From assembly GCA_002385465.1 (NCBI GenBank), contig DGDN01000043.1, forward strand, positions 2,927-66,926: a stretch of DNA of 64,000 bases. Direction: 5' to 3'. Below, piece by piece: positions 45,466 through 64,000 of this stretch. Numbering within the stretch: position 1 is the first letter of the stretch; every line of letters begins with the position of its first letter. Origin of the DNA: Candidatus Fermentithermobacillaceae bacterium UBA3951. Its GTDB lineage: Bacteria; Bacillota; Sulfobacillia; Fermentithermobacillales; Fermentithermobacillaceae. The translations under genes and the position numbers were made by a program. The notes under the pieces are model-generated. The model made no database searches. It saw only the letters and a list, made by a program, of their open reading frames with translations, and had not been told where the DNA came from.

Positions 45466-46535
45466 TATGTGGCCTCCCAACTCCCCATCGCCCCGGCGAA
45501 CTCCCTGGTTGCGAGTTCAGGCGATGTGGGGTTTATGTACGTGCCGCTTCCCAACTCGAGCCCGGCCTCGGTGTTGAGCCTGGGGTAGACGTGGATATGG
45601 GCGTGATAGGGCCACCCTCGCTTGGTCTTCACGGACGAAGGCAGACCGTGGAAGACCATGTTGTAAGGCAATGCCGAGAACATGGACTCGTATGCTCCAA
45701 ATAGCTGTCGAATGGTAGCGGCGAGGTCATCCATCAGCGCATCGTTCATCTCTGTGAACCCGGAAACGTGCTCCGCGGGCACAATGAGGGTCTCGTAAGC
45801 CCGCCTTGAAGCGAAAGGCGAAAGGACGAGAAACCGGTCGTTCCTGAGTATCACCCGCACGTCCTTCTCGGCTTCACGCTCCAGAAGGTCGCACATGAGG
45901 CATCTACGGGTCTTGGATTCGTAGTCCTTCAGGCGTTGCCCTTCCAGCAAGATAGCCGGGGGCATGACGGGCAACGCGATGATCTGAAAGTGGGGATGGG
46001 TGAGCGACGCTCCCGCTGTCTTTCCACTGTTCTTAAAGACCTGGACGTAGGAGATGTCACTCGAGTCGTACATGGCCGCGCATCTCTCCTTGATGGCTTC
46101 CAGCACCTTCTTCATGTGGCCAGTGGAGTACGAGCCCAGAGAGCCGTTGTGTGCGGGGGATTCCACGACGACCTCGTGGAAACCCACTCCCGGAGCTTGC
46201 CAGTACAAAGCCCCCTCGGGAGAGTCGGGGAACGGAGGAACCCTCCACGCATCATCTTCTGCCATCCCGTGAGGCCTGGAGATAAGAGCCGGGAACTTAT
46301 TCGGTACCACCCGCACCGTCCAGCCTGGGCTATCGGCGTTTCCTTCCGTGCGATTCGCCCACACCTCGGGCGGGGTCTCCCGCTCGTTCCCAGGACAAAA
46401 CGGACACTTAGGATCCCTTTCGGGCAATTCGCCGGCTCCGTCCTGCGCGGACCTGTAATCGGAAGGCCTTTTCGACCTTTCTTGAGCGATGATTGCGAAG
46501 CCTGCGCTCAACACATCAAACCGGATCTCAGGCAA
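45465..46535 (-). CDS. galT: GalT-family (HIT superfamily) hexose-1-phosphate nucleotidyltransferase
   Basis: Zn site CPFCPGNE and active-site HPHFQI (HxHxQ), with VFKNSG and HAHIHVYP aligning with the E. coli GalT VFENKG / HPHGQI / HAHFYP segments. Confidence 0.8.
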   Translation of the reverse strand: MPEIRFDVLSAGFAIIAQERSKRPSDYRSAQDGAGELPERDPKCPFCPGNERETPPEVWANRTEGNADSPGWTVRVVPNKFPALISRPHGMAEDDAWRVPPFPDSPEGALYWQAPGVGFHEVVVESPAHNGSLGSYSTGHMKKVLEAIKERCAAMYDSSDISYVQVFKNSGKTAGASLTHPHFQIIALPVMPPAILLEGQRLKDYESKTRRCLMCDLLEREAEKDVRVILRNDRFLVLSPFASRRAYETLIVPAEHVSGFTEMNDALMDDLAATIRQLFGAYESMFSALPYNMVFHGLPSSVKTKRGWPYHAHIHVYPRLNTEAGLELGSGTYINPTSPELATREFAGAMGSWEAT

Positions 46536-46613
46536 ACGTATCGTCCTCTCAAGTTGGGCTCAGTGCTTTGACCCTTCGTTGGGCTCCCGGTAGTGCTACG
46601 CATCGTGCTTTAG

Positions 46614-46648
46614 GGGAACAAAAGGGGTAGTCAAGATACTACCCCTTC
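46614..46648 (-). terminator. Intrinsic terminator downstream of the CotF-repeat gene
   Basis: Minus strand AAGGGGTAGT-atcttg-ACTACCCCTT 10-bp stem followed by TTGTT. It lies between the coat gene stop (46674) and the galT start (46535). Confidence 0.6.
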
Positions 46649-46673
46649 TTGTGTTCCTTCGTCGTACGCGTCT

Positions 46674-47813
46674 CTACTGGCTCTGCCAGTTGCCCTGGCT
46701 TCCCAGCTGCCAGCCTTGACGCTGGACCCCAAGATCTCTCTGCCAGCTGCCGGTGCCGAAATGGGTGGGTGAACCCTGCATTCCTCCAAGGCCCTGCTGC
46801 GTCCCACCGTGCTGGAACCCTAGAGATGGCTGACCGGGTACAAAACCTACCTGTTGTCCCGGTCCGCCCTGGCCAAAGCCTGTGCCTCCCCTTGCCCAAT
46901 TGGGTAGGTTCGCGCTGTGGCCGGATTGATACTGGCCGCCGAAACCCATCCAGCTCGGCTCACCGCCCCACTGAGCGCTCTGCCCCAGACTCGACGGTCC
47001 GAAGCCACTCTGGCCTTCCCCGTACTGCGTTCCTGTCCAGCCCTGCCTGCTTACTGCCCCTTCTTGAACGCCGAAGCCGCTCTGGCTGCCGAAACCTCTC
47101 TGGGCCCACTGGGGGATGTTCTGGTACTGCTGCGTTCCGTGGATCTGGCCTGCTCCCGTCGAAATCCAGCTGGGCTGGCCACCCCAGCGCGCTCCCTGTG
47201 CCAGGCTTGAGGGTCCAAAACCGCTCTGCCCTTCGCCGTACTGGGTACCGGTCCAGCCCGTGCTTCCCTGCCAACCGGTAGACGCGCTTTGTGCTCCGTA
47301 CCCGCCTCTGGCCCAATCGGGAATGCCGCCTTGATGCTGGGTACCCTGGAACTGCCCGGTGCTTCCCGACATCCAGCTCGACTCACCGCCCCAACGCGCA
47401 CCCTGGCTCACGCTGGAGGGTCCCATACCGCTTTGGCCTTCCATGATCTGAGTGCCGGTCCAACCCACTTGTCCTTGATTCATGCTCACGTTAGTTCCTC
47501 CCATGTTCACAGTGGAATTCATGACTTGCCTCGACTGGTGAACGGCGTTTCTGAGATGAGAGAGCGTCTCCTGATCCGCTTTCCGAACCTGATACCAGCC
47601 TTTGGAGTGCAAGTAGTCAAAGACGCTTTTTGCCGCACTGGTTGCGCCGGCGTGGAGCTCCTGAAAGGCCGAACGCAGCGCGGGATCGCCCGATTCCAGG
47701 ATCGCGGGCGCATAGTAGTAGTTGGACAAGTACTTCTGTCCAGCCAGAAGGTCTTCGGCGATTTCCCGGTCGGTCATGGGTTTGCCGCCGGAAGATCCTG
47801 CCACTTCAGACAC
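46674..47813 (-). CDS. CotF-domain spore coat protein with C-terminal Trp/Gly/Gln-rich tandem repeats
   Basis: The N-terminus (EDLLAGQKYLSNYYYAPAILESGDPALRSAFQELHAGATSAAKSVFDYLHSKGWY) is a Coat_F-type domain. Residues about 117-330 form three repeats of about 70 aa (GWTGTQYGEGQSGFGPSSLAQGARWGGQPSW...IPQWAQRGFG). Confidence 0.7.
   Translation of the reverse strand: MSEVAGSSGGKPMTDREIAEDLLAGQKYLSNYYYAPAILESGDPALRSAFQELHAGATSAAKSVFDYLHSKGWYQVRKADQETLSHLRNAVHQSRQVMNSTVNMGGTNVSMNQGQVGWTGTQIMEGQSGMGPSSVSQGARWGGESSWMSGSTGQFQGTQHQGGIPDWARGGYGAQSASTGWQGSTGWTGTQYGEGQSGFGPSSLAQGARWGGQPSWISTGAGQIHGTQQYQNIPQWAQRGFGSQSGFGVQEGAVSRQGWTGTQYGEGQSGFGPSSLGQSAQWGGEPSWMGFGGQYQSGHSANLPNWARGGTGFGQGGPGQQVGFVPGQPSLGFQHGGTQQGLGGMQGSPTHFGTGSWQRDLGVQRQGWQLGSQGNWQSQ
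46824..47465. repeat. Three in-frame tandem coding repeats (~210 bp each) inside the CotF-domain gene
   Basis: The protein repeats start at residues 117, 186 and 258. The DNA shows recurring ccagctgggct / caccgcccca / ggtccaa blocks. Confidence 0.7.
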
Positions 47814-47835
47814 TTTCTTGACCGCCCCCTGCTTT

Positions 47836-48039
47836 TCACTTCACGTGACTTGATAAGAGGCTCAAGTGTCGCTCACACGCTCGTTCCAGGTTTTCGATAA
47901 GTGCCCGTAGTTCGGGGTCTTGGGCCATCTGCCTGTAAGAGGTGAGTTTTTGCGACATGAGGGTCTCACCCTTTATGGACTCTCCAAGGTACCAGGCCTC
48001 GGTCTGGGTGAGCTGCAATACGCGCCACCTCCCTTCCAT
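47836..48039 (-). CDS. Small CotF-like spore coat protein (start uncertain)
   Basis: LMSQKLTSYRQMAQDPELRALIENLERACERHL resembles the Coat_F core. The track ATG at 48039 lacks a Shine-Dalgarno. The internal ATG (MSQKL, 40 aa) is preceded by AAGGTGA. There are 22 nt between this gene and the larger CotF gene. Confidence 0.5.
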   Translation of the reverse strand: MEGRWRVLQLTQTEAWYLGESIKGETLMSQKLTSYRQMAQDPELRALIENLERACERHLSLLSSHVK

Positions 48040-48082
48040 TCAGGCTTAGAATGTCACTGGCCCCCTGCGTGTATTCCCGCGG

Positions 48083-49486
48083 CTATACGGACATTGCCCC
48101 TGATTCATCCTCAATCAGCTGCAGGACGACCTGCTCTTTGCCCGTCATGGCGTTTATGTAGACAAGATAGGTGTCGTTACCGCTTCTCACCCTGAACTCC
48201 CATGCCATTACCTCCGTTGTAGGGAGGATCGGTATGACGCAGAGTCTGGGTTCGGCGCTTTCAACCTTGAGCTCGGGCCTGAGCACGCTGCGGGCCGCGG
48301 CCGGTGAAACGATGGGCGCCCTGAGCACGCGTCCGGGGTGACCGTGGGTCATCAAGTAGTTCATCTGGTCGAATGAGACAATGGCACCGGTATCGAGCGA
48401 TACCTCGACCTTCACCGTGTCGGGGTAGAGGCGAACTTTTGTACTCCCTCCGGGCCCGGACACCTCTGTATGAGGCACGTAGGCGAATACTACACGGCTC
48501 GCGTCCGCGCCGCGCTTTCGCCACCCCGTTTCCTCGAGGCTTAGAAAACCCTTGGACTTCAGGAATTCCATTGCCTTATTCCGGGCCTCATCCAACCCGA
48601 TGGCGCCCGCGCCTCTCGGGGCGGAGTCTGTGGCCATGACCACTGCCCCTCCCTGTTTGGCAACGGTCGTAGCCACCTCGCTCCCATCCTGTCTCTTTGC
48701 GGTGACCACGTACGAAGGAATAGACCCTTCAACCGTCCCTACTGAGACGGACTCGAAACTCTCGCCGGGAGTGAGAAATGACAGGGCTATCTCTTTGGCC
48801 CTCTCCTGAGAGATCAAGGGACCGGGCTGCGCAAGGGCCTGGGCTTCCAGGTTCTTCTCCGAGAAAGGCCCGTCGTAAACGGGTGTAGGGATGCTCTGGG
48901 TGATCTGATCGATCTCGGAGAAGCCGTGGTTCAGCGAATCCGCCGCCCGTTGAGAGCTTCCTGTGAAAGAAGCCGCCATCTCCTGAAGCCCCGCCCTTTG
49001 GGGCCTAGGCGCAGTGATGCTGGCCTGCGCCGTCCTCGCAAGGACACCGGAAAGCTGCTTTACTCCTTCCTCAAGCCGGGCGAGTTCAGCCCACTCATCC
49101 GGAGTCACGGTTTCGCCTCTCGCCAGCTTCTGGGAAAGCACCAGAGCGAAGTCTCCTACTGTTGCTACAAAACGGCGAGGGCCGGAGAGGTCCACTCCGT
49201 CTGCTCCTGCCAGGCTGAGATCGCTCCGGGCCGCCTGACAGTTCAGCCAGCCCGAGGTCAAGAAATTGATCTGCTGCCCGGGCGACGATGAAGCCCTGGC
49301 TTTAGCCAGGCTCGCCTCGAGGTTCTCAACGTGGGTAACCAAGTTAAAAAGGGCTCTTTGCTGAGCCGCTTGCATCCTGATCCTAGCCGACCGGGCGTCT
49401 CTGTATTGCGCAAGACCAAACGCCAGAGAAAGTACGGTCACGGCGCCAAGAGCCCAGAGGAGCCATCTCTCTCTTCGTGTCCTCAT
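48083..49486 (-). CDS. ypeB: Germination protein YpeB (PepSY-domain membrane protein, SleB partner)
   Basis: N-terminal TM, and the C-terminus matches B. subtilis YpeB (VFAYVPHTEVS...VRLYPDTVKVEVSLDTGAIVSF...TYLVYINAMTGKEQVV). Confidence 0.85.
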   Translation of the reverse strand: MRTRRERWLLWALGAVTVLSLAFGLAQYRDARSARIRMQAAQQRALFNLVTHVENLEASLAKARASSSPGQQINFLTSGWLNCQAARSDLSLAGADGVDLSGPRRFVATVGDFALVLSQKLARGETVTPDEWAELARLEEGVKQLSGVLARTAQASITAPRPQRAGLQEMAASFTGSSQRAADSLNHGFSEIDQITQSIPTPVYDGPFSEKNLEAQALAQPGPLISQERAKEIALSFLTPGESFESVSVGTVEGSIPSYVVTAKRQDGSEVATTVAKQGGAVVMATDSAPRGAGAIGLDEARNKAMEFLKSKGFLSLEETGWRKRGADASRVVFAYVPHTEVSGPGGSTKVRLYPDTVKVEVSLDTGAIVSFDQMNYLMTHGHPGRVLRAPIVSPAAARSVLRPELKVESAEPRLCVIPILPTTEVMAWEFRVRSGNDTYLVYINAMTGKEQVVLQLIEDESGAMSV

Positions 49487-49522
49487 CCTTCCTTTACACC
49501 TCTCTTAATGCAAGGGCCTTCA

Positions 49523-49981
49523 TCAGTACGCGAACACATGGTTGCCGATCTGAGTGACGATGGGCCTAGACCATATCCAGGGGCTCACCGGCTTGTAGGG
49601 GTTCCAGAAGAAAGTACATCCGTAGGTTGGGTCGTATCCATTGAGCGCCAGTTCGGCCGCGCGGTACATCTCATCGGTAGGCGTGGTGCTCCATATGAGG
49701 CCGTTGGTGACCGATTCGAAGGCATCCGGGTCATAGATGACCCCTGCTATCGTAGGTGGGAAAGCAGGATCTCTGGTCCGGTTCACTATAACCGCACCGA
49801 CGGCGACCATGCCCAAGAAAGGCTCCCCAGTGGCTTCGCCCATGATCACCCGGGCAAGGAGCTCGAATTCGTCGTACCAGCTCTGGGGCGCGGCAGCACA
49901 CCGCGGCATGTCGGCGGAAAGCGAAGTTGATAAGAAGATCAGCGCTGCTGCGCAAAGGCAAAAAAAAGTCTTGATCCTCAA
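49523..49981 (-). CDS. sleB: Spore cortex-lytic enzyme SleB/CwlJ-family hydrolase (catalytic domain only, secreted)
   Basis: Signal peptide plus a Hydrolase_2 domain (IMGEATGEPFLGMVAVGAVIVNR...FWNPYKPVSPWIWSRP). The TTG start follows GGAAGGG. There is no N-terminal PG-binding domain. Confidence 0.9.
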   Translation of the reverse strand: MRIKTFFCLCAAALIFLSTSLSADMPRCAAAPQSWYDEFELLARVIMGEATGEPFLGMVAVGAVIVNRTRDPAFPPTIAGVIYDPDAFESVTNGLIWSTTPTDEMYRAAELALNGYDPTYGCTFFWNPYKPVSPWIWSRPIVTQIGNHVFAY

Positions 49982-50089
49982 ATGGCATCCCTTCCTCTAC
50001 TTGTAGGTCCTACCGCGTCCTTTGGCGCTTGCGAAAGGGCGCAAGGAAGGCCCGTGCTCTTAGAATGCGTGAGGAAGGGATGCAGTTAT

Positions 50090-51142
50090 TCAGCGACCTT
50101 GGTAAGTCGCGCGGTTTTGGTTGTGCTCCGCCAAAGTGCGGGCAAAAGCGTGGGTACCGTCGTTCTTGGCTACGAAGTACAGATAATCCACGTCATCGGG
50201 AGCAAGGACGGCTTCCAGGCTCGCCTTGCCGAAATTGCAGATGGGGCCCGGCGGGAGGCCGGGATTCCTGTATGTGTTGTACGGAGAGTCTACTTCTAGG
50301 TCCTTCCAGAGCACCAATGCGTCGGGGGGTTTTCCCAGTGCATAGAGCACGGTAGGATCGGCATCCAGCTTCATCCCGATCCTAAGCCTGTTTAAGTAGA
50401 CTGCAGCGACGATAGGCCTCTCAGAAGCAACCTGAGCTTCGCGCTCCACAATCGAGGCCAAAGTGGCCGCCTGATGCGGGGTGAGATTGACCGCCGCGGC
50501 CTTCTCCTGCAACTCTTCGGTGAAAACCTGCTCCATCCGCTTGAGCATCATGAGCACCAGTTCTCGTTCGGACATTCCTCTCCGGATGTAATAGGTGTCG
50601 GGGAAGAGATAACCCTCAAGCGGCGCTCTTGCGGTTTCAAGATATTCGGGCGGGAGGTAAGCCGGGGCAAGGGATCTGTCCGAGGCGGCCTCCAGGAAAG
50701 CTTCCTTTGACCCGAAACCCCTCTCCTCTACAAGAGCCGCTATTTGGTCCACGCTGAGCCCTTCCCGCACCGTAAGCGAATAATAGATGACACGCCCTTG
50801 GACCAGGCTGTCAACCACATCAAGAGCGTGAATGCCGGGCTCAAATCTGTACTCCCCCGATTGGATGCGGCCGTCGGCTCTCATCACTCTGGTAAGCACC
50901 CTGAAAAACAGCTCGTCCCGTATCACGCCGTGGTCCTTAAGGAGGGCCGCGACATCACGGGTGGACATCCCCGGTTCCACAATCACGCTAACCGGCCCGG
51001 CTGTTTCCGGCAGAGGACAAGAGCTGAGGTAGGACGCTATTGACAAGGCCACTATGCCGAAAGCAAGGACAAGCCACAAACCGTACTTGCGTAGGCGGCT
51101 GCGGCGGGGCAGCGTGCCAACTTGCGTGCCGGGTGCTCTCAA
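50090..51142 (-). CDS. mltG: Endolytic murein transglycosylase MltG (YceG-like)
   Basis: N-terminal TM and a YceG domain. Confidence 0.85.
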   Translation of the reverse strand: MRAPGTQVGTLPRRSRLRKYGLWLVLAFGIVALSIASYLSSCPLPETAGPVSVIVEPGMSTRDVAALLKDHGVIRDELFFRVLTRVMRADGRIQSGEYRFEPGIHALDVVDSLVQGRVIYYSLTVREGLSVDQIAALVEERGFGSKEAFLEAASDRSLAPAYLPPEYLETARAPLEGYLFPDTYYIRRGMSERELVLMMLKRMEQVFTEELQEKAAAVNLTPHQAATLASIVEREAQVASERPIVAAVYLNRLRIGMKLDADPTVLYALGKPPDALVLWKDLEVDSPYNTYRNPGLPPGPICNFGKASLEAVLAPDDVDYLYFVAKNDGTHAFARTLAEHNQNRATYQGR

Positions 51143-51513
51143 TACTCGGGCTCCTCCTCATCTTCTTCCGGCTCGTCTTCATAGCCCAGGTTCGGGTCTT
51201 CGTCGCCCTCATCGACAACGAACTCGCAGTCTCCGTACTCGCCCTCCAGCTCGATCTCTTCAAAAGCCTTGAGGACTTCTTCCCATTCCTCGTCGCTGTC
51301 AATGGTGGCGAGGATGTTTTCACCTTCGTCATCGACATCGACCCTCAAGATGACTATCTCAGGCTCCATGTCGTCTTCTTCTTGGATTGGCATAAGCACC
51401 ACATACTGCCGCTCACCCACAAAGAGCGAGTCGAACAGTATCCGAAAGCTTATCTCTTCGCCGTTTTCGTCTTGAAGCACGATTAGATCATCATACTCTT
51501 TCACCGATATCAC
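51139..51513 (-). CDS. DUF1292/UPF0473-family acidic protein (YrzB-like)
   Basis: MISVKEYDDLIVLQDENGEEISFRILFDSLFVGERQYVVL plus an acidic tail, in the conserved slot between ruvX and mltG. Confidence 0.7.
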   Translation of the reverse strand: MISVKEYDDLIVLQDENGEEISFRILFDSLFVGERQYVVLMPIQEEDDMEPEIVILRVDVDDEGENILATIDSDEEWEEVLKAFEEIELEGEYGDCEFVVDEGDEDPNLGYEDEPEEDEEEPEY

Positions 51514-51959
51514 TACCCTTCTTTTTGAGGGGTCCTATTCCGCCTGGCCCTCAGGTAATTCTCAAGGATGAGGGCCGCCGCGGCGCCGTCTATGGTGTTT
51601 TTCCTCAGGCGGCGGGACTTCCCTAAGGCTATCATTTCCTTTTCCGCCTGGGAAGTGGTAAGTCTCTCGTCGGAGAGGAAAACCGGCATGCCGGCGTAAC
51701 GCTCAAGAAGCCCGGCAAACCGCCTCGCACGCTTCGCGGAAGGACCGAGAGTGCCGTCCATGTTTTTCGGTAATCCAACCACAAATGACGAGGCGCCGTG
51801 CTTTATTGCGAGAGCCGTGAGGTTTTCTGCGAGGTCCTCGAGGCCCCTGTAACTCAACGTGACCAGGGGACTCGCGAGGGTATTGGTTTCATCACTGATG
51901 CTGACCCCTATTCTCTTGAGGCCGAGGTCGACGCCTATTATCCTGCCCGTCTCTTCCAT
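51513..51959 (-). CDS. ruvX: Holliday-junction resolvase-like nuclease YqgF/RuvX
   Basis: IIGVDLGLKRIGVSISD RNase H-like motif. The start is taken at MEETGRII (the M at residue 53 of track ORF 51513..52115). Confidence 0.85.
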   Translation of the reverse strand: MEETGRIIGVDLGLKRIGVSISDETNTLASPLVTLSYRGLEDLAENLTALAIKHGASSFVVGLPKNMDGTLGPSAKRARRFAGLLERYAGMPVFLSDERLTTSQAEKEMIALGKSRRLRKNTIDGAAAALILENYLRARRNRTPQKEG

Positions 51960-51964
51960 GGGCG

Positions 51965-52912
51965 TCACATCACCTTCAGACAGAAATGAGGGCATACCTT
52001 GGCGCAATAACCGCAGAGCATGCACTTTGCCATGGAAACAAGGGGACGCCCTTCCTCCATTGAAAGCGCCCCGAAGTCGCAAGCCTCCACGCAGCGGCCA
52101 CACCCTTCGCACCAATCCTCGATGAGGAGTCTCTTTGGCTGAGAGCCGCGAGACAATCCGTCATCGGGCGGTTCTTCGTTGGAGAAGATCCTCGCTGCGA
52201 ATTGTACCTCGTGGACCGTGTGCATACCAACTGCCACGCTGTGTCTATAAGGGAAATCCCTGACATACTCGAGGGCGCGTCTCGCTTGAGCAAAGAGGTG
52301 CCCTCCGCCCAAGGCCTTCATGAGGTAGACACCTTTGCCGCATTCCCACGCAAACCCCAGGGCTTTTTCCATGTCGACCCTTCCGCCGCCCCTTATACCC
52401 AGCCCTTCAACATTTAGAATGGCGAAGATTATGTCCACTTCGGATAACGTGGCGGCGGCCCTCACGCACTCGACGGTGTGGGTCGAGACCGCTATTCCCC
52501 TGATCGTCCCGCGTTCCTTCTCGCGCGCAAGGTACTCGAGGGCCTCACGGTGCCCCTTTAGAGTGAGGGCTGACTCCTGCTCGTGGAGTCCGAAAATATC
52601 CAGAGTGTCACGACCGAGTTCACGCCTGGCGCGGTCAAGGGATTTCTTCATGCCCTCGCGGCCGAAAGCGAATGAACGGGAAGCGATTACCGAGCCGTCT
52701 CTTTTGGCCACCTTCTTGAGGTGTGCGTAGGTGTCGTAGAAGTCTGCGGTGTCGAAAAAGTTGACACCCATGTCCCAGGCGAAGTCGATCACCTTAGCGG
52801 AATCGTCGGGAGTCATGTTGTAGTGGGTGCGACTTAATGAAAGGGAGCCGAAACAGAGTTCTGACACTCTGATGCCGGTCGCTCCGAAATACTTGTAGCG
52901 CAATGGGGTCAC
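51965..52912 (-). CDS. Aldo/keto reductase fused to C-terminal 2x[4Fe-4S] ferredoxin domain
   Basis: AKR N-terminus (MTPLRYKYFGATGIRVSELCFGSLSL, DTADFYD) plus two CxxCxxC...CP cluster motifs (CEGCGRCVEAC, CMLCGYCAKVCP). Confidence 0.7.
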   Translation of the reverse strand: MTPLRYKYFGATGIRVSELCFGSLSLSRTHYNMTPDDSAKVIDFAWDMGVNFFDTADFYDTYAHLKKVAKRDGSVIASRSFAFGREGMKKSLDRARRELGRDTLDIFGLHEQESALTLKGHREALEYLAREKERGTIRGIAVSTHTVECVRAAATLSEVDIIFAILNVEGLGIRGGGRVDMEKALGFAWECGKGVYLMKALGGGHLFAQARRALEYVRDFPYRHSVAVGMHTVHEVQFAARIFSNEEPPDDGLSRGSQPKRLLIEDWCEGCGRCVEACDFGALSMEEGRPLVSMAKCMLCGYCAKVCPHFCLKVM

Positions 52913-52956
52913 CGTCTCACCGGGTCCCTCCGTGGGAAACGAAGGGACCCTTTGCG

Positions 52957-54054
52957 TTACTCTATGGGCTCCATCCGTCCGGCGAGTTTCTTAAGGACTT
53001 CAGGCATCGTGGTGTACTCCAGCTCTTCAAGCCCTAAGCGGTGAGGCTCAAAGGGGCCCATGGAGCGGAAGTAGTCCGCCATCTCGTTGGCGATCTGCCG
53101 GGCCCGGTCAAACGCGACGTCCGCAAAGAAGTCCTGGGGGCCTATGAGCTTGCCCTGGCTGAGCTGGAAGCCGAACGCCATAACTCTCGGAGGTCCGTCA
53201 AATCTGGTCGGAATGGCCTGCTCTGCTCCGCACGGCATGAGCGGCCCGTGGTGGGAACCCCTCATCCAGCCTGCGACAATATGAGGCTTGGAGAAGGGCT
53301 CAAGCGCTTCTCCAACGGCAGGCATACCGCTCTGGCAGCGGACGATCAAGACCGGATCGTCCTTACCTACGTACCGGCCGGCCATGAGGTTGAGCCTCTG
53401 TGTCGACGACGTGGCCGCGATCTCGCCGAGTGTCCTGGAGTAGACGGACTTCACGCAGTAGCGGCCTGGGGCACCGATGAACACTAAGAGGTCGTAGAGC
53501 TCTTCAGGGCAGTGGAAAACGACCTTCTTGTGTTCTATGAGGTCGTGGACCTCAAAATCGAAGCCTTTGTGCATCTTGGGGTCGATAACCAACCCGGCGG
53601 TGTTGAACGGGTCTGCGAACATCTTGTAGAGCGGGTAGTTCCAGGCTCCGGGCTCGGTCTTGTCAGCCATGAAGACTATGACCGGCTCCGAGGGTCTCTC
53701 TTCGAACTCCATCTCGGCGACCCCGGGTCCCAGGCCCTTTATGTTCCCTGAGAACGAGTCGCTGAGAAGGTCTTGCCCCGCCCCGTACAGCTTGAGTCTC
53801 TTGGCTTCCGCGGTAGCGGCAAGGAAGGCATCCCAAGCCAGCTTGTGGATGTCTTCGTTGTCCACGCCGAGAGAGTGAGTCATGATGAGCTCGATGTCGT
53901 CTCCCACGTGGTCAACGTGGAAGTCTATGAGGAGCCCTTTCCCACGCGTCTCGAGGTGGTCCTTCGCGGCCGCAAGCAGGTTCTGGTGCACCGATGAATG
54001 TCCAACGAACCCCCCTACGTCGGCCTTGATCACGGATAGCGTTACTTTAGACAA
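52957..54054 (-). CDS. fbp: Bifunctional fructose-1,6-bisphosphate aldolase/phosphatase (archaeal-type class V FBPase)
   Basis: Near-colinear identity by eye with the archaeal FBP A/P hallmark segments (VIKADVGG, LIMTHSLG, YGAGQDLLSDSFSGNIKGLGPGVAEME, ADKTEPGAWNYPLYKMFADPFNTAGLVIDP, WMRGSHHGPLMP, RFDGPPR). Confidence 0.9.
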   Translation of the reverse strand: MSKVTLSVIKADVGGFVGHSSVHQNLLAAAKDHLETRGKGLLIDFHVDHVGDDIELIMTHSLGVDNEDIHKLAWDAFLAATAEAKRLKLYGAGQDLLSDSFSGNIKGLGPGVAEMEFEERPSEPVIVFMADKTEPGAWNYPLYKMFADPFNTAGLVIDPKMHKGFDFEVHDLIEHKKVVFHCPEELYDLLVFIGAPGRYCVKSVYSRTLGEIAATSSTQRLNLMAGRYVGKDDPVLIVRCQSGMPAVGEALEPFSKPHIVAGWMRGSHHGPLMPCGAEQAIPTRFDGPPRVMAFGFQLSQGKLIGPQDFFADVAFDRARQIANEMADYFRSMGPFEPHRLGLEELEYTTMPEVLKKLAGRMEPIE

Positions 54055-54099
54055 TTACTATCCCTCCGGTGCGTAATAAAGACATCTGAGAGTTCTAGT

Positions 54100-54789
54100 T
54101 CAGCGAGACGTAATCCTTCCCCGTCTCATAACGATAGCGAGAAGCATCCCGGCGATGAACCCTCCGATATGGGCCCACCAGGCCACACCCCCCTGTGCTG
54201 TGACTCCGAGGGAAGCCACTCCCGACAGGAGGTTCGTGATGAACCAAAGGAACAGAAAGACAATGGACGGGACCTCAACCATTGGGAGGAAGAAGCCTAT
54301 GGGTATAAGCGCCAGCACTCTAGCCCGTGGAAACATGACGAAGTAGGCCCCAAGGACTCCCGCGATGGCTCCGCTGGCCCCTACTGTCGGGACCGTGGAA
54401 GTCGGGGATGAAAACACATGGGCAAGCGACGCGATGATCCCGGAACACAGATAGAACACCGCGTAGCGCCCGTGCCCCAGCCTGTCTTCAACGTTGTCGC
54501 CGAAGATGAAAAGGTACATAAGGTTTCCGAGGAGGTGAAACCATCCCACATGGATGAAAAGCGATGTTATTAGGGCCAACCATCCCGACGTCATCTCGAG
54601 AACATGAGGAGGGAAAGCCCCGGGGTTGATGAGGACCGCCGGGATGACCCCGTACCTTACGGTAAACGCATTCAGGCCCCTTTGCGTGAGAGCCAGTTCG
54701 TATACGAAGACAAGGAGGTTTATTGCGATCAAGAGCCAGTTCACGACCGGTTTTCGGCGTGACCTCTGAGTGTCTCTCAAGGGGATCAA
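54100..54789 (-). CDS. Rhomboid-family intramembrane serine protease
   Basis: 6 TM, a catalytic GASGAIAG (Ser) on TM4 and AHIGGF (His) on TM6. Confidence 0.75.
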   Translation of the reverse strand: MIPLRDTQRSRRKPVVNWLLIAINLLVFVYELALTQRGLNAFTVRYGVIPAVLINPGAFPPHVLEMTSGWLALITSLFIHVGWFHLLGNLMYLFIFGDNVEDRLGHGRYAVFYLCSGIIASLAHVFSSPTSTVPTVGASGAIAGVLGAYFVMFPRARVLALIPIGFFLPMVEVPSIVFLFLWFITNLLSGVASLGVTAQGGVAWWAHIGGFIAGMLLAIVMRRGRITSR

Positions 54790-54835
54790 TGTCCATCCCT
54801 TCCTTCCGGGAGCCGCCTACTTCTTAGAGCATTCC

Positions 54836-56410
54836 CTAATATAGATATAGAAGTGAGTCCACCGGAGCATAGTCGTCGGTAAGGAACACTGCCCCCTCTA
54901 CCGGTATCTCGCCCTCGTAGAGCGAAGAGGCGAAGCCGGGAAGCCCCTTGATGGTGGCTCTTTGACCTTCAAGCATACGGGCCTTCTCAATAAGCCGCTC
55001 CTTTCCCTGCGGAACTCCGAAGCCTTCTCCCGGCTTTAGGCAAAATACTTCGATGTTCCGGAGAGACGATTCGGTGCCGGGCGAATAATTCACCGGGAAT
55101 ACATAGGTGTCCGCAAAGACCCTTCTTATCGTATGAAACATGGAACGAAACAGCTTGGACTTCTCTCCTTCAAGGGCTCCTATGAGGTTCGAGGCCAGGA
55201 CACCGCCGGGCTTCAGCCTTTCCCGGACCAACTCGTAGAATTCCACCGTAGTCAGGTGAAAGGGAATTGAGTCGGCATAGTAGGCGTCCACGATGATAAG
55301 GTCGTAAGCCTTCTCCGAAGATTTCAAGAAAGCTCGCCCGTCGGCCGTATGTACCCGTATCTCCTCGTCGCCGGGAAAACCGAAGTATTCGCGGGCTATG
55401 CGGGTCACTTCCGGGTCGATTTCAACGCACTCGATGGTCATGTCCGGGTAGTCTCTATGGAAGCGTTTAGGCACAGTGCCGGCTCCCAGCCCTATGAACA
55501 GGACGTCCTCCAGGTCCTCCTTGAAAAGAAGCGCAAGGTGAAAGAAGTCGGTGTATGGGAAGACGCTCTCGTAGGGCCTTTCGGGGTACATCCCGCTCTG
55601 TATCGAGTTGTCGAACTTAAGGAGGCGCCTTGAGCCGTCTTCCACAACATAGATGTGGTGGTAGAGAGACTGGGTTTCATATATGACGCCCGCCGAGCCA
55701 CCGGGGAAAAGAGACGGTCCCAGGCCAAAGACTAGGGCCGCACATAGAATGAGTGCCGCGGCTTTCGGTCGCCGGGGCCGGGCGGAGATACAAAGTACCG
55801 CCCCCACTCCAAGCATCGAGACCGAGAGGCACCGGAGGATTGTCTCCGTCCCTAGAGACGGGATCAAGTAGAACGACGTAGCGAAAGTGCCGGCTATACT
55901 GCCTATGTTGGAGACGGCATACAATAGGCCGGCAGACCTTCCGGCGCTATCTATCCGGTTTAAGGTAAGCCGTACGCACCAGGGTGAAATCGTTGCGAGG
56001 AGAAGAGAAGGCACAAAAAACAGGAGGGTTGAGGCCCCAAGGAGCGACGGAATGCCCGGAGCTCCTGAAGCCAGTACCGGCAGGAGGCGTTCCGAAAAGA
56101 CGGGGATTAGCCCGGTCCAGACTCCTGCTATCGCAAACACGATTGAGGTATCTGAAAGCCTCGGGAAACGGTCCGACAGATATCCGCCCGTATAATATCC
56201 CAAACTCAAGGCAGTGAGTACTACACCGATAAGACTGCCCCATACGTAGATGGACGACCCGAAAAAGGGAGCCAGTATGCGAGAGCCAACCATCTCCAGG
56301 CTCATGAGTGCGGCGCCGGAGAAAAGCGCCACAACATGCACAAAAAAACCCACGGCATACCTCCTGGAATAGACGGAGGGCCCTCCGGCCCCCTCACCTC
56401 TACCTGCCAA
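54836..56410 (-). CDS. Spermidine-synthase-like methyltransferase fused to N-terminal polytopic membrane domain (COG4262-like)
   Basis: About 8 N-terminal TM helices and a C-terminal PABS/SAM-MTase fold (FIGLGAGTVPKRF...ECVEIDPEV...YDLIIVDAY). Confidence 0.65.
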   Translation of the reverse strand: MAGRGEGAGGPSVYSRRYAVGFFVHVVALFSGAALMSLEMVGSRILAPFFGSSIYVWGSLIGVVLTALSLGYYTGGYLSDRFPRLSDTSIVFAIAGVWTGLIPVFSERLLPVLASGAPGIPSLLGASTLLFFVPSLLLATISPWCVRLTLNRIDSAGRSAGLLYAVSNIGSIAGTFATSFYLIPSLGTETILRCLSVSMLGVGAVLCISARPRRPKAAALILCAALVFGLGPSLFPGGSAGVIYETQSLYHHIYVVEDGSRRLLKFDNSIQSGMYPERPYESVFPYTDFFHLALLFKEDLEDVLFIGLGAGTVPKRFHRDYPDMTIECVEIDPEVTRIAREYFGFPGDEEIRVHTADGRAFLKSSEKAYDLIIVDAYYADSIPFHLTTVEFYELVRERLKPGGVLASNLIGALEGEKSKLFRSMFHTIRRVFADTYVFPVNYSPGTESSLRNIEVFCLKPGEGFGVPQGKERLIEKARMLEGQRATIKGLPGFASSLYEGEIPVEGAVFLTDDYAPVDSLLYLY

Positions 56411-56416
56411 GCTGAC

Positions 56417-56722
56417 CTAGATGGCCTTTGCTTCCCGCACGTAAGCCTTGATCAGTTCTTCCAGGATCTCATCCCGCTCTACTTTCCGGACAAGACTCCT
56501 CGCATTATTGTGGCTGGTGATGTACGTGGGATCCCCCGATAGAAGATAGCCTGCGATCTGGCTAACCGGATTATGGCCTTTCTCCTTGAGGGCCACATAA
56601 ACCTTGAGGATGATATCCCTTGTCTCTTCGTCTCTGTCGGGCTTTACCTTAAAAAAACGCGTTTCTTCGAACTCAGCCATGCCCAGGACCCCTCCTAGGA
56701 TCACTCTTCGCCAGAGGCGCAA
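56417..56722 (-). CDS. ireB: UPF0297 protein IreB (YrzL-like)
   Basis: [66 protein letters not shown], a typical UPF0297 protein located downstream of alaS. Confidence 0.8.
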
Positions 56723-56742
56723 AAACTCCTACGTCTAATACC

Positions 56743-59429
<2,687 letters not shown>

Positions 59430-59430
<1 letters not shown>

Positions 59431-61172
59431 CAGGATTCCTCCCCCGGCAGAATGCGCTCTATCTCGCGCCGGATTATCTCTTTGAGCCGGTCAGGCAATT
59501 CGTCCAAGGGAACGATCTCTCCCTCGGGCAGCCGGCGGAGCTTGACTTCTGCCCCGCCCCTCTTGAGGCTCCTCTCAGATACGGTCACCCTTATCGGCAT
59601 GCCCAGAAGGTCGGCATCGTTGAACTTGACTCCGGCAGACTCGTCCCTGTCATCGTAAAGGACTTCAATCCCTTCGGCCAGGAGACGCTCGTACACACCT
59701 TCCGCCGTGCTCCTCGCGTCCTCTGAGGTCCCGAGCGCCACAAGATGCACGTGGTACGGCGCAACCGTCATGGGCCAGATGATGCCCTTGTCATCGTGGT
59801 TCGCTTCTATCACGCACGCGAGGAGCCTCCCGACTCCCATACCGTAGCAACCCATAACCAAGGGTTTGAGCTCTCCGTTTTCGTCTTGGTACATGGCTTT
59901 CATTGGAACCGAATACCGCGTCCCCAACTTAAAGGTGTTGCCGACCTCGACACCCCTCTTAACGGTCAAGCGCTCACCGCACGCCGGGCACGCGTCTCCC
60001 TCCCTGGCAGTGGCGATATCTGCTACAACGTCAATCCTGAAATCCCTCCCGGGCACTACTCCGACCAGGTGATAGCCACTTTCGTTGGCGCCGGCCACGT
60101 AGGCCCTTTCGGCGGAGAGACTGTCGTCGGCGACGACGAAAATGCGTTCCACCCCTACCGGCGACATGTATCCTTGCTCCAACCCGAGTTCTTTGAGTTC
60201 TTCGGGCTCCGCGAGCCGCATCTTATCTACCTTGCGCAAGTTTGCGAGCTTCTTCTCGTTGACATCGAGATCGCCTCGCAGTACCACCATCACCGGATCC
60301 TGGCCCGCGAAATATACCATTGTCTTTATGCTGGTCTTTGGGTCTCTACCCAGGAACTCGCAGACCGATGCTATCGTGTCCTTTCCGGGTGTCGAGACCT
60401 TGGCCGGCGCAGGCAGCATCTCCCCTTCCACAGGCTCGGGGACTCCTGAGCTCTTGTCTATCCGGGCGGCCTCCCTGTTTGCTGCATAGCCGCACCTCGG
60501 ACAGAGGATTAGCGTATCTTCTCCTGCGTCTGTCACGTAGGTGAACTCGTGGGCGCCGGTCCCTCCCATCATGCCGACATCACCCTGGACCTGAGTGACG
60601 GGCACTCCACACGACCGGCATATTCGTCTGTAAGCCCTACACTGCGCGGGATAGTACTCGTCAAGGCCCTTCTCATCGGCGTGGAAGCTGTACGCGTCTT
60701 TCATGACGAACTCGCGCACCCGCACGAGGCCTCCTCTGGACCTCGGTTCATCCCTGAACTTGGTCTGGATATGGTACACAACGATCGGGAGCTGCTTGTA
60801 CGAGTCGATGAACCGCCTCGCGAGGTCAGTCACGGGTTCCTCGTGAGTCATGGCAAGCACCATGTCTCTCCCCGAGCGGTCTTTGAACCTGACCATCTCG
60901 GGCCCTACCTCGAAGAAACGTCCGGATTCCTCCCATATGTCCGAAGGGTGCACGACCGGCATGTTGATTTCTTGACCACCGGCCGCGTCCATTTCCTTGC
61001 GCATGATGTCCTCGATTTTCCTGATACTGCGCCAGGCAAGAGGCAAGTAGCTGTATATACCGGCGGCCAGTTTGGAAATCATGCCGGCCCGGAGAAGCAG
61101 TTCGTGAGAAGGCATTTCGGCTTCGGCGGGCTTTTCTCTTAGGGTCCTGCCGAACCTCTGACTCATTCGCAT
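59430..61172 (-). CDS. proS: Proline--tRNA ligase (bacterial type with INS editing domain)
   Basis: Class II motifs and an insertion editing domain. The start is taken at MRMSQRFGRTLREKPAEAE (SD GGAGG), 30 codons downstream of the track start. Confidence 0.9.
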
Positions 61173-61208
61173 AGCAAGGCCTCCAATTAGTGGGCGAAGA
61201 TTAGAACG

Positions 61209-61237
61209 ATTATATCGACCATATATATGAGGGTCAA
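61209..61237 (-). promoter_or_regulatory. Sigma-A-type promoter upstream of proS
   Basis: Minus strand TTGACC, 17 nt, TATAAT about 35 nt upstream of the proS Shine-Dalgarno. No T-box motif is seen in the short leader. Confidence 0.6.
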
Positions 61238-61310
61238 CGAACCGGGCCCGCGCGCAAGGCATGAGAAGCCCCGCCTTCGGGAGGCCCGCAACTAAAAGCC
61301 AACCGGGAGG

Positions 61311-62573
61311 CTACGTGTTCGCAAGCGCCGCGTCCCTCCGGTCGAGGCTCCGGCTGTAGATTAGCGATACTGCGGCAAGAGCCGCCCCTCCGGCAAAGAC
61401 CACCCCAGGCCCAAACGCATCCCACAGAAAGCCGCCCAGGACCGGAACCGACACACCGCTCACGTGGTTCACCGTGCTGCCCATGGCATATGCTGCCGCC
61501 AGGGATTCCTTCGGGGCTATCCTTCCCAGGTATGTAGTAATCGCCGCGTCAAAACCCATAAGTCCGTGGTCTAGGACAAACACCAGAAACAGGATAACCG
61601 GGAGTTTCACGAAGCCGTAGGCCGTAAAGAGCGAGATCACGAAAACATAGTTCAGAACCAGGCTTTTCTGCTCGCCCCACTTATCGATCACTTTGCCCAC
61701 GAGGGGCCTGGTGATAATGGCCACCACGCTGGAGATGGCCGAAAGGAGCACCATGACGCTTACCGGGGTCTTGTAGACTTCCACCAACAAATATCCCGCA
61801 AATGTCTGGGTGATGTGCCTCCGTGATCCCCCCAAGAAGGTCAAGACATAATAGCTCATATATCGCGGGTTTAGGTCCATCGAAGCCCGCCCCGAAGGCT
61901 TGTTGCCCATAGCCTTCCTCAAGATGCTGACTCCGCCCAAAGCCGTGAATGCCGCGGCCATGGTGTGGAGAAAGGCGTAGTCTGTCTTCCAGTATTTCGA
62001 TATCGCTATGACGATTCCTACTGAAATCAGCGACCCGGCTGCGCCCGCGCTGTTCATCTGTCCAACCTTCGTAGCCCTCTCCTCAGGCAGGCAGGTTTTT
62101 ATAACGATGGACGACTGAACGGGGTAGAACAAATGAAAGCCTGTAGACATGACCAAGGTGGCGACGACCAGCAGGGGGAAATTCAAGGCGACCGTGTGCA
62201 TGAAGATGCCTGCCGCAGTCAAGATGAGACAGATCCCGGCCCAGGTGTTCTCCCTGAAAAAACCCGACACCATGGCTAGAGGCGCGGTGAGAAGACCCGG
62301 CACCTCGCGGATCCCCTGCACGAGGCCCAGCTGGGATGGCTGTATACCAACCACCTCGACTACAAAGTTGTTGAAGATGCCCCTTTGCAGGCCGTGCCCA
62401 AGTTCGAGCGCAAGAGTAGCCCCCAGGATGTTCCGGAAAACGGCGTGGCGCTCGGCATCCGACCGCAGGCCTCCTCCTTCGCCGTCTGAGACCCGGTCAC
62501 AGGTCGCCTCTTCGCCGGCCTCCGGTCTCAATGGCACGTTGCCTTTCTCTCTTGTCCCTCTGCTTGTGGCCAA
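61311..62573 (-). CDS. MFS transporter
   Basis: 12-TM MFS with a soluble 50-aa N-extension. Confidence 0.75.
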   Translation of the reverse strand: MATSRGTREKGNVPLRPEAGEEATCDRVSDGEGGGLRSDAERHAVFRNILGATLALELGHGLQRGIFNNFVVEVVGIQPSQLGLVQGIREVPGLLTAPLAMVSGFFRENTWAGICLILTAAGIFMHTVALNFPLLVVATLVMSTGFHLFYPVQSSIVIKTCLPEERATKVGQMNSAGAAGSLISVGIVIAISKYWKTDYAFLHTMAAAFTALGGVSILRKAMGNKPSGRASMDLNPRYMSYYVLTFLGGSRRHITQTFAGYLLVEVYKTPVSVMVLLSAISSVVAIITRPLVGKVIDKWGEQKSLVLNYVFVISLFTAYGFVKLPVILFLVFVLDHGLMGFDAAITTYLGRIAPKESLAAAYAMGSTVNHVSGVSVPVLGGFLWDAFGPGVVFAGGAALAAVSLIYSRSLDRRDAALANT

Positions 62574-62657
62574 GCAACATCACCGTCTCGTCCCTGTCAA
62601 AACTAGTGGCCCAAGCCGTCCCTCCCTTGAACATACAAGCCGGCGCAGACTCACATC

Positions 62658-63998: not shown

Positions 63999-64000
63999 GC

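Follow-up and report, generated by a model that had tools for sequence, protein, structure and literature searches.

The four genes wedged between ireB and ruvX in the 64,000-nucleotide stretch of contig DGDN01000043.1 analysed here (the window), from Candidatus Fermentithermobacillaceae bacterium UBA3951, were probably assembled as a composite within a conserved housekeeping cluster, at a single junction, rather than brought in by one four-gene insertion. As a lineage-specific form of a cluster already known, the block is unremarkable, and all four of its genes are, judging by profile matches and motifs, members of known families. Read along the minus strand, the genes are proS-alaS-ireB, then a fused membrane/SpeE-like methyltransferase gene, a rhomboid gene, an FBP aldolase/phosphatase (FBPA/P) gene (fbp) and an AKR gene with two [4Fe-4S] ferredoxin motifs (AKRFer), followed by ruvX-DUF1292-mltG-sleB-ypeB (Table 1). 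An earlier, sequence-only reading had placed four extra genes on one strand between ireB and ruvX, and the ORF listing and the Pfam/NCBIfam scans bear this out, together with the identities it gave them. The spacers are short, as it had stated, at 5-63 nt: 63 nt for ireB/SpeE-like, 46 for SpeE-like/rhomboid, 45 for rhomboid/fbp, 44-53 for fbp/AKRFer and 5 for AKRFer/ruvX. Stops and starts overlap or almost touch at proS/alaS, AKRFer/ruvX, ruvX/DUF1292 and DUF1292/mltG. Because the identical order is found in independent ENA, NCBI and JGI assemblies of relatives (L001, L002 and L005, with 73-95% protein identity), it is not an assembly artefact. The ireB product is 90% identical to its orthologue in Ca. 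Fermentithermobacillus carboniphilus. For the SpeE-like gene the most likely start is GTG 56353 and not TTG 56410, since the former has an AGGAGG Shine-Dalgarno sequence and agrees with the 505-aa NCBI call. For AKRFer it is most likely TTG 52903, opposite the ATG of relatives in the alignment; a start at GTG 52912 would give 315 aa. For proS, ATG 61172 is the probable start, with the same product length as in relatives.

Table 1. Genes and signals around the ireB-ruvX junction, in window coordinates.
Feature	Coordinates	Strand	Product	Basis and remarks
Sigma-70-like promoter TTGACC-17-TATAAT	61209..61237	-		11/12 matches; ~37 nt upstream of probable proS start
proS (prolyl-tRNA synthetase)	59430..61172	-	580 aa	Stop overlaps alaS start
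alaS (alanyl-tRNA synthetase)	56743..59430	-	895 aa	ORF listing; Pfam families read on orthologues
ireB (IreB/ReoM-family regulatory phosphoprotein)	56417..56680	-	87 aa	PF06135, 121 bits; upstream anchor
Fused membrane/SpeE-fold methyltransferase-like gene	54836..56353	-	505 aa	NF037959, 256 bits; PF01564; start most likely as given
Rhomboid intramembrane serine protease	54100..54789	-	229 aa	PF01694, 123 bits
fbp (FBPA/P; class V FBPase)	52957..54054	-	365 aa	PF01950, 615 bits; NF041126, 604 bits
GC-rich hairpin, 12 bp stem, no U tract	52922..52950	-		Between fbp stop and AKRFer start
AKRFer (AKR + 2x[4Fe-4S] ferredoxin)	51965..52903 (or 52912)	-	312 aa	PF00248 + Fer4; start most likely as given first
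ruvX (YqgF-family nuclease)	51513..51959	-	148 aa	Pfam/NCBIfam scan; downstream anchor
DUF1292 gene	51139..51513	-		Pfam/NCBIfam scan; start overlaps ruvX stop
mltG (YceG-like endolytic transglycosylase)	50090..51142	-		Pfam/NCBIfam scan; overlaps DUF1292 stop

The FBPA/P scores 603.9 bits against the NF041126 equivalog cut-off of 520 and 614.9 bits against PF01950 over profile positions 1-360 of 361. The motifs Y228-V-G-K231-D-D, KAD12VGG and D52-D53 are all present; from archaeal structures, we take these to supply the Schiff-base lysine with its tyrosine and Asp-Asp pair, and the N-terminal metal-binding aspartates. Besides its PF01694 match, the rhomboid protein has the HxxxxHxxxN signature (H80, H85 and N89), G137-A-S139-G, H207 and hydrophobic segments. 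The SpeE-like protein matches NF037959 at 256.5 bits (cut-off 40) over positions 2-480 of 480, with about 6-7 hydrophobic segments in residues 1-219 and a C-terminal SpeE fold; the best PDB sequence matches of the protein are 3GJY and 5WCJ. Its assignment as a spermidine synthase was rejected: TIGR00417 scores 58 bits against 249.55 and NF002010 scores 75 against 260, and the protein reads GLGAG, with no GGGDG. With scores so far below the speE equivalog cut-offs and with the GLGAG motif, polyamine synthesis is not established. In AKRFer, the AF2 model (pLDDT 91.7) has the eight strand-helix units of a (beta/alpha)8 barrel, and the structure closest to it by Foldseek is that of the AKR PA4992 (4exa; TM-score 0.80, E 1.6e-15). 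All 46 family members compared have three of the tetrad residues, D51, Y56 and H107. Most of them also have Lys at the lysine position, which is Arg (R76) in the window protein and in its relatives from DTU015. In place of the G-x-S-N motif usual for NAD(P)H binding, the window protein has V-S-T-H. Both [4Fe-4S] motifs (C265-x2-C-x2-C-x3-C275 and C294-x2-C-x2-C-x3-C304) are likewise invariant in the 46 sequences. The protein lacks a flavin that could link one-electron Fe-S chemistry with hydride transfer. To our knowledge the family is uncharacterised, and the fusion has no solved structure.

AKRFer has a history apart from the rest of the block. In a set of 80 loci anchored on IreB and taken from GTDB species genomes, ireB directly adjoins ruvX in most, as the sequence-only reading had held for Bacillus-type genomes; the same applies to Lachnospiraceae, and no AKRFer lies between ireB and ruvX in either group. 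Twelve of the 80 have AKRFer downstream of ireB, with ruvX next wherever the contig reaches. These include L010 (Peptococcaceae), L011, L017, L021, L022, L045, L048, L056 (Tissierella), L078 and L081 (Sporomusa), at 41-47% identity, so that one of the four genes proves ancestral to the cluster in distant Firmicutes. The cultured Thermosediminibacter oceani and Desulfovirgula thermocuniculi have a tight alaS-ireB-AKRFer-ruvX-DUF1292 arrangement. A reciprocal census took in 80 metagenomic AKRFer loci, 69 of them with enough flank to read and 52 with at least 3 kb upstream. It placed ruvX within 250 nt downstream of AKRFer in 67 of the 69. Directly 5' of AKRFer is ireB in 38 of the 52 and fbp in 7; in another 7/52, ireB is followed by some other insert of 0.9-2.3 kb and then by AKRFer. 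The AKRFer-ruvX linkage extends over Thermosediminibacter, Desulfovirgula, Sporomusa, Tissierella and Peptococcaceae. AKRFer is probably an ancient resident, the usual order in anaerobic Firmicutes being alaS-ireB-AKRFer-ruvX-DUF1292-(mltG), with AKRFer tight against ruvX.

The rhomboid and fbp genes behave as a pair. Both sit at the junction between ireB and AKRFer in all members sampled from DTU015 (Ca. Fermentithermobacillia), an uncultured class of thermophiles, namely in L001, L002, L005, L006, L008 (Ca. F. carboniphilus Bu02), L009, L090 and L093 and in 10 metagenomic loci. In an NJ tree, 11 representative rhomboid-fbp loci, the window included, form one clade with 100% bootstrap. In both outgroup genomes looked up, T. 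oceani and Koleobacter methoxysyntrophicus, fbp is located elsewhere, and the closest FBPA/P sequences outside the clade, at 75-77% identity, belong to other thermophilic Firmicutes. The pair would have arrived between ireB and AKRFer in the DTU015 common ancestor and been retained since, and it can serve as a synteny marker for DTU015/Ca. Fermentithermobacillia.

The SpeE-like gene is patchy and variable in position: some lineages have it inside the cluster, whereas others have it at another site or not at all. It is missing from L008, L090, L096, L097 and L099, and it is accompanied by a convergent M28 peptidase gene in L006, L009 and L093. Copies outside the cluster (L003, L007) nest within the clade of in-cluster copies. 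The gene thus appears to be a variable occupant of the junction, beside which some lineages carry opposite-strand M28-peptidase and BON genes; the window lineage would have lost such opposite-strand genes, leaving the twelve genes from proS to ypeB unidirectional. The order of events is ambiguous: on the NJ tree, in which one node is weak (64%), parsimony scarcely separates a single gain combined with two or more losses or relocations from a pair of independent gains. Of the single four-gene insertion that had been proposed, what stands is the addition of three genes relative to the outgroups: AKRFer is ancestral, and the other three are not one unit.

How the block is transcribed can be approached through consensus scans, which non-canonical promoters escape. 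The sigma-70-like site upstream of proS is the strongest of only three promoter-like sites in 49000-64000, and no promoter-like or U-tailed terminator site was found in the gaps of the block. Co-transcription of the block from this site is plausible, and proS to mltG would be largely read through from it. The gap after fbp does hold a conserved hairpin. This hairpin has no U tract (dG -24.6 kcal/mol, z -3.8), occurs once in the window, and keeps its stem with variable loops in L001, L005, L006 and L008. It might stabilise or attenuate the mRNA, giving different levels of fbp and of the AKRFer-ruvX tail. Two features of relatives suggest further subdivision. In L006, L009 and L093, opposite-strand genes lie between ireB and the rhomboid gene, and a promoter is therefore required upstream of rhomboid there, which shows that transcription of the downstream genes can start independently; a remnant of this promoter could be active in the window. 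Strong hairpins immediately follow ireB in several relatives, with a T run in L006, and proS-alaS-ireB may therefore be a separate transcription unit. The translation-linked control suggested by the sequence-only reading is weakened: no T-box or other Rfam element was matched at E <= 0.1 on either strand of 44000-64000. With ireB, mltG, sleB and ypeB, the cluster belongs to the cell envelope at least as much as to translation. The sleB-ypeB pair apparently has a forespore-type promoter of its own.

These data bear on two other accounts of origin. A single cassette of four genes, inserted whole and co-transcribed from the proS/alaS promoter, with gluconeogenic, redox and membrane functions brought under translation-linked control, would account for the shared strand and short spacers, for the strong promoter-like site upstream of proS followed by gaps free of promoter or terminator sites, and for the direct contact of ireB with ruvX in most Lachnospiraceae loci. 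We nevertheless regard it as improbable, as distant Firmicutes have AKRFer at this site without the other three genes, many class members have rhomboid-fbp-AKRFer but no SpeE-like gene, and opposite-strand genes break the block in L006, L009 and L093. In addition, the lack of a T-box or Rfam element upstream of proS or alaS leaves no evident amino-acid-responsive control. The spread of identity (41-64%) and the taxonomic breadth of the AKRFer-containing clusters speak against a single recent transfer of the whole block. Recent acquisition of the block as a genomic island by horizontal transfer, for example from archaea, is very unlikely indeed. Archaea and deep-branching bacteria are the best-known sources of FBPA/P, and the 'archaeal-type' enzyme could hint at such a source, as could the unrelated inserts downstream of ireB elsewhere (a 536-aa Baseplate_J-like ORF in L022, a 716-aa ORF of unknown function in L045, and the 0.9-2.3 kb inserts of seven metagenomic loci). 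However, GC stays at 0.54-0.62 throughout, with no GC or skew anomaly, neither flanking repeats nor mobility genes were found at the block, the nearest FBPA/P sequences come from other thermophilic Firmicutes, and the arrangement is kept across the whole class, where AlaS identity falls to 59%.

DTU015 bacteria are predicted to be peptide/amino-acid fermenters that lack the upper glycolytic steps and carry gluconeogenesis only as far as fructose-6-phosphate (PMC10215811). For such an organism, growth-coupled FBPA/P would be useful in feeding gluconeogenic fructose-6-phosphate into cell-wall amino sugars. A tentative further reading is that selection keeps ireB, rhomboid, FBPA/P, AKRFer and mltG in one transcription unit as a module that supplies the cell envelope, with FBPA/P providing fructose-6-phosphate for UDP-GlcNAc and with IreB/ReoM-type regulation of MurA, and MltG, acting on the same pathway. 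In Listeria and Enterococcus, IreB/ReoM proteins regulate peptidoglycan synthesis through their control of MurA (PMC7286690, PMC12077105); mltG, sleB and ypeB come next in the same direction; DTU015 depends on gluconeogenesis for fructose-6-phosphate; and rhomboid-fbp is fixed at this site class-wide. This support is correlative only, however, and is offset by the unrelated metabolic neighbourhoods of fbp in the two outgroup genomes, by the apparent separate promoter of sleB-ypeB, and by a rhomboid and an AKRFer for which no substrate is known. It is possible, though doubtful, that the 312-316-aa AKRFer is a functional partner of the RuvX/IreB/DUF1292 module in anaerobic Firmicutes and not an incidental neighbour. 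If so, its near-obligate adjacency to ruvX (67/69 loci) would be the footprint. It could be a carbonyl reductase linked to the ferredoxin pool or, alternatively, a Kv-beta-like redox sensor tying ribosome or cell-envelope maturation to redox state.

The four-gene insertion in itself carries little weight: it amounts to known gene families rearranged in one lineage of an uncultured class. The almost constant place of AKRFer immediately upstream of ruvX in anaerobic Firmicutes is a modest guilt-by-association lead, and it bears on a cluster in which RuvX and DUF1292 have poorly defined roles in Firmicutes. The idea that DTU015 peptide fermenters co-express their sole route to fructose-6-phosphate with cell-envelope housekeeping genes is testable.

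Compared with known systems, the window shares the anchors, order and strand of the Bacillus subtilis cluster alaS-yrzL(ireB)-yrrK(ruvX)-yrzB(DUF1292)-yrrL(mltG), and the ruvX/DUF1292 and DUF1292/mltG overlaps are also shared with the conserved Firmicutes form. Unlike the B. subtilis-type cluster, it has four genes between ireB and ruvX, proS before alaS, sleB-ypeB after mltG, and no detected T-box leader. The clostridial form (T. oceani CP002131, D. thermocuniculi, Sporomusa silvacetica) likewise has an orthologous AKRFer of 312-316 aa directly upstream of ruvX, which retains D-Y-(K/R)-H and all eight of the invariant cysteines. There, however, AKRFer follows ireB directly, whereas in the window the SpeE-like gene, rhomboid and fbp lie in between, and the DTU015 proteins differ in having Arg at the catalytic Lys position. 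The SpeE-like protein resembles the fused MFS/spermidine synthase family NF037959 in joining an N-terminal polytopic membrane region to a C-terminal SpeE-fold domain. The C-terminal domain of METTL13 (PDB 5WCJ), a methyltransferase of the SpeE fold, is one of its best PDB sequence matches, and it has GLGAG in place of the GGGDG of aminopropyltransferases. Finally, the FBPA/P is a full-length class V enzyme (PF01950, NF041126) with the motifs of its family, and only its genomic context sets it apart: the T. oceani gene adjoins aroC/aroB-like genes and the Koleobacter gene adjoins dihydroxyacetone kinase genes, whereas in the window it sits in the ireB-ruvX cluster.

In the window, every long ORF within 48083-61262 lies on the minus strand, and the ORF listing and the Pfam and NCBIfam scans, from which gene identities are taken, bear out the sequence-only reading that four extra genes stand between ireB and ruvX, with two starts adjusted (see the table). 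The start of the SpeE-like gene is corrected to a GTG at 56353, preceded by an AGGAGG Shine-Dalgarno, and that of AKRFer, an aldo-keto reductase (AKR) fused to a 2x[4Fe-4S] ferredoxin domain, to a TTG at 52903, aligned with the ATG of relatives. Other non-ATG starts are apparent within 48000-61300 (GTG in DUF1292; TTG in rhomboid, fbp, mltG and sleB), and several were compared with the ATG starts of orthologues. The spacers of the block measure 63, 46, 45, 44-53 and 5 nt. Among named genomes, that of Candidatus Fermentithermobacillus carboniphilus Bu02, a member of the uncultured class DTU015 (Ca. Fermentithermobacillia), is the closest (IreB 90% identical), and a Bacillota MAG encodes a 100% identical copy of the SpeE-like protein. 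The order ireB-SpeE-like-rhomboid-fbp-AKR-ruvX is identical in independent ENA, NCBI and JGI assemblies (loci L001, L002 and L005, proteins 73-95% identical), and an assembly artefact is therefore excluded.

Genes of the array and its flanks in the window
Feature	Position	Strand	Profile match
proS	59430-61172	minus	
alaS	56743-59430	minus	
ireB	56417-56680	minus	
Fused membrane/SpeE-like protein	54836-56353	minus	NF037959, 256 bits
Rhomboid protease	54100-54789	minus	
FBPA/P (fbp), fructose-1,6-bisphosphate aldolase/phosphatase	52957-54054	minus	NF041126, 604 bits vs cut-off 520
AKR + 2x[4Fe-4S] ferredoxin domain	51965-52903	minus	
ruvX	51513-51959	minus	
DUF1292	51139-51513	minus	
mltG	50090-51142	minus	
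sleB	49523-49981	minus	
ypeB	48083-49486	minus	

In anaerobic Firmicutes AKRFer has long belonged to the core of the cluster and stands outside any insertion, as is seen from IreB-anchored loci, cultured species and a reciprocal metagenome census. The IreB-anchored search (one genome per GTDB species, with cluster proteins located by tblastn) yielded 80 loci, and in most of them, mainly from Lachnospiraceae, ireB adjoins ruvX directly, which agrees with the adjacency assumed at the outset. AKRFer, 41-56% identical, is placed 3' of ireB in 12 of the 80, and ruvX comes next wherever the contig extends. Loci with ireB-AKRFer include Peptococcaceae, Oscillospiraceae, Clostridiaceae, Tissierella, Schnuerera and Sporomusa, and a tight alaS-ireB-AKRFer-ruvX-DUF1292 array is found in the cultured Thermosediminibacter oceani and Desulfovirgula thermocuniculi. 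When metagenome contigs are scanned with an alignment of 46 AKRFer proteins, ruvX is found no more than 250 nt downstream on the same strand in 67 of the 69 loci whose contigs extend 500 nt or more past the gene. Directly upstream, among the 52 loci with at least 3 kb, there is ireB in 38, fbp in seven (the arrangement of DTU015, the window's uncultured thermophilic class), and ireB followed by a different 0.9-2.3 kb insert in another seven. Since the gene is ancestral in relatives, it no longer belongs in the proposed four-gene insertion. This near-obligate linkage of AKRFer to ruvX is the most useful by-product of the analysis; literature searches on the family, on the linkage and on COG1453 returned nothing relevant except one proteomics table entry.

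The AKRFer family is uniform (310-316 aa), and over the alignment of 46 proteins D51, Y56, H107 and eight cysteines are invariant, while the catalytic Lys position holds Lys or Arg (Arg in DTU015). The AF2 model is confident (pLDDT 91.7), with a compact eight-stranded barrel and the ferredoxin domain. Structurally it is most similar to the short AKR PA4992, and none of the solved structures has an AKR-ferredoxin fusion. In close relatives, a second AKR-2x[4Fe-4S] paralogue, 39-42% identical to the in-cluster copy, lies beside MFS transporter genes, a few kb 5' of proS (L001 2460-3416, L005 3429-4043, L006 1-943). The matching region of the window contains two MFS genes (61311-62573 and 62658-63998); any such paralogue in this organism would sit past the window edge.

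Rhomboid and fbp have a different history. The pair is immediately upstream of AKRFer in every DTU015-type locus sampled, namely the window, L001/L002, L005, L006, L008 (the Bu02 genome), L009, L090, L093 and ten metagenomic loci. Eleven representatives, the window among them, group as one clade with 100% support in a neighbor-joining tree of concatenated AlaS, IreB, AKRFer and RuvX (1377 columns, 200 bootstraps). FBPA/P carries its expected motifs (D12, D52/D53, Y228-x-x-K231-D-D), and the rhomboid has H80/H85/N89, GASG and H207. A recent transfer of FBPA/P from archaea is rejected on the evidence of its nearest homologues, as the closest proteins outside the clade are from thermophilic Firmicutes (Koleobacter, Thermosediminibacter, Carboxydothermus, Moorella and Pelotomaculum, 75-77% identity). 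In T. oceani and Koleobacter, fbp is found in unrelated neighbourhoods without rhomboid. A compositional island is likewise dismissed, GC content and skew being unremarkable, and a repeat search of 51400-56900 gave only short chance-level matches and no flanking repeats. Because Firmicute homologues are nearest, GC is uniform and flanking repeats are absent, rhomboid-fbp looks like an old relocation within a Firmicute lineage rather than a recent foreign island.

The presence of the SpeE-like gene in the cluster varies. The clusters of L008, L090, L096, L097 and L099 lack it; in L006, L009 and L093 a convergent M28/DUF4910 peptidase gene comes after it, and L093 also has an opposite-strand BON-domain gene ahead of it. 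Only in the window, L001/L002 and L005 is it present and free of opposite-strand neighbours. On the concatenated tree, the form with SpeE and M28 occupies both a basal branch (L009/L093) and a position beside the window's clade (L006), with two SpeE-less groups falling between them, a pattern that repeated gains could also produce. In the SpeE-like protein tree, copies from outside the cluster (L003, L007) nest within the 100%-supported in-cluster clade, so that one and the same orthologue shifts its position. A plausible account is a single ancient gain with subsequent losses or relocations. For the uninterrupted array of the window, we infer loss of the opposite-strand peptidase gene as the most likely origin. 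The junction 3' of ireB is a recurrent insertion point: it holds a 536-aa ORF with a weak Baseplate_J hit in L022 (10391-12001), and, in L045 (5250-7400), a 716-aa ORF that matches no Pfam family. A 2.23 kb gap recurs at the ireB/AKRFer junction in metagenomic loci L129, L144, L146 and L172, and this insert is close in size to the L045 ORF. The SpeE-like protein itself has about 6-7 hydrophobic segments and then a SpeE-fold domain, which is equally close to the METTL13 protein-methyltransferase domain (5WCJ) and to aminopropyltransferases. Its identification as a spermidine synthase is rejected, since GLGAG replaces GGGDG and scores are far under the speE equivalog cut-offs, and "SpeE-like methyltransferase" is a fair label.

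A consensus scan of 49000-64000 finds only three sigma-70-like sites, of which by far the best (TTGACC-17-TATAAT, 61237-61209) lies immediately 5' of the proS start. Inside the block, the gaps contain no promoter-like site, and no gap contains a U-tailed terminator-like site; a weak promoter-like site (9/12) is within the AKR gene (52230-52201). At proS/alaS, AKR/ruvX, ruvX/DUF1292 and DUF1292/mltG the stop of one gene overlaps or all but abuts the start of the next, which together with the promoter scan fits predicted read-through from proS to mltG. An Rfam scan (E <= 0.1) finds no T-box or other leader RNA in 44000-64000; thus amino-acid-responsive control is unsupported, and no cis element is visible for the suggested translation-linked control. 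This absence, the hairpin after fbp described below and the relatives all call for caution over read-through: where opposite-strand genes interrupt the block, rhomboid-fbp-AKR-ruvX must have a separate promoter, and several relatives have strong hairpins directly 3' of ireB. The M28/rhomboid intergenic regions of L006 (13660-13842) and L009 (10490-10625) have in common a short palindrome, CCTCCGGACACGGAG, and, ahead of rhomboid, a TAGAAT hexamer resembling a -10 box; they are a candidate independent promoter region for rhomboid-fbp-AKR-ruvX in relatives interrupted by opposite-strand genes.

The fbp stop and the AKR start are separated by a GC-rich hairpin with a 12-bp stem and no U tract (52922-52950, minus strand; dG -24.6 kcal/mol, z -3.8), whose stem is kept and whose loops vary in L001, L005, L006 and L008; L009 has a hairpin of other sequence at the same place. 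It is not a repeated element, the motif being unique in the window, and it may serve to stabilise the mRNA on its 5' side or to attenuate expression on its 3' side. Immediately 5' of the fbp start, the ribosome-binding-site sequence (T)ATCAT..ACCGGAGGGAT(A/G).. (54055-54085, minus strand) is conserved across DTU015 loci including L006, L008, L009 and L090, the rest of the 45-280 nt spacer being unconserved; short complementary bases flanking the Shine-Dalgarno could sequester it. At the other end, sleB and ypeB seem to form a unit of their own. The 108-nt mltG/sleB spacer (49982-50089, minus strand) is strongly structured (dG -45.5 kcal/mol, z -5.1), with a 13-bp long-range stem whose 3' arm covers the sleB Shine-Dalgarno. 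A GAATA-19 nt-CATTCTA motif overlapping the mltG stop is conserved in the window, L001, L005 and L090 (GCATA replaces GAATA at the same spacing in L006), and is a candidate promoter resembling the forespore (sigma G/F) type.

In the likeliest account, the housekeeping cluster alaS-ireB-AKRFer-ruvX-DUF1292-mltG gained rhomboid and fbp in the DTU015 ancestor, the SpeE-like gene was variably hosted at the same ireB/AKRFer junction, and the array became fully co-directional in the window's lineage, where it is probably transcribed in large part by read-through from the proS promoter. DTU015 members are predicted to be thermophilic, spore-forming peptide and amino-acid fermenters whose gluconeogenesis stops at fructose-6-phosphate (PMC10215811). 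FBPA/P, as the only route to this compound and on to cell-wall amino sugars, would be coupled with envelope genes of the ireB/mltG type, a coupling that we infer and find attractive because IreB/ReoM has a role in MurA control (PMC7286690, PMC12077105). Of the four genes first read as one insertion, rhomboid and fbp are a class-wide addition, the SpeE-like gene is a variable occupant, and AKRFer is an old resident. The interpretation is partly supported, and the array is a known cluster in altered form, built from known gene families.
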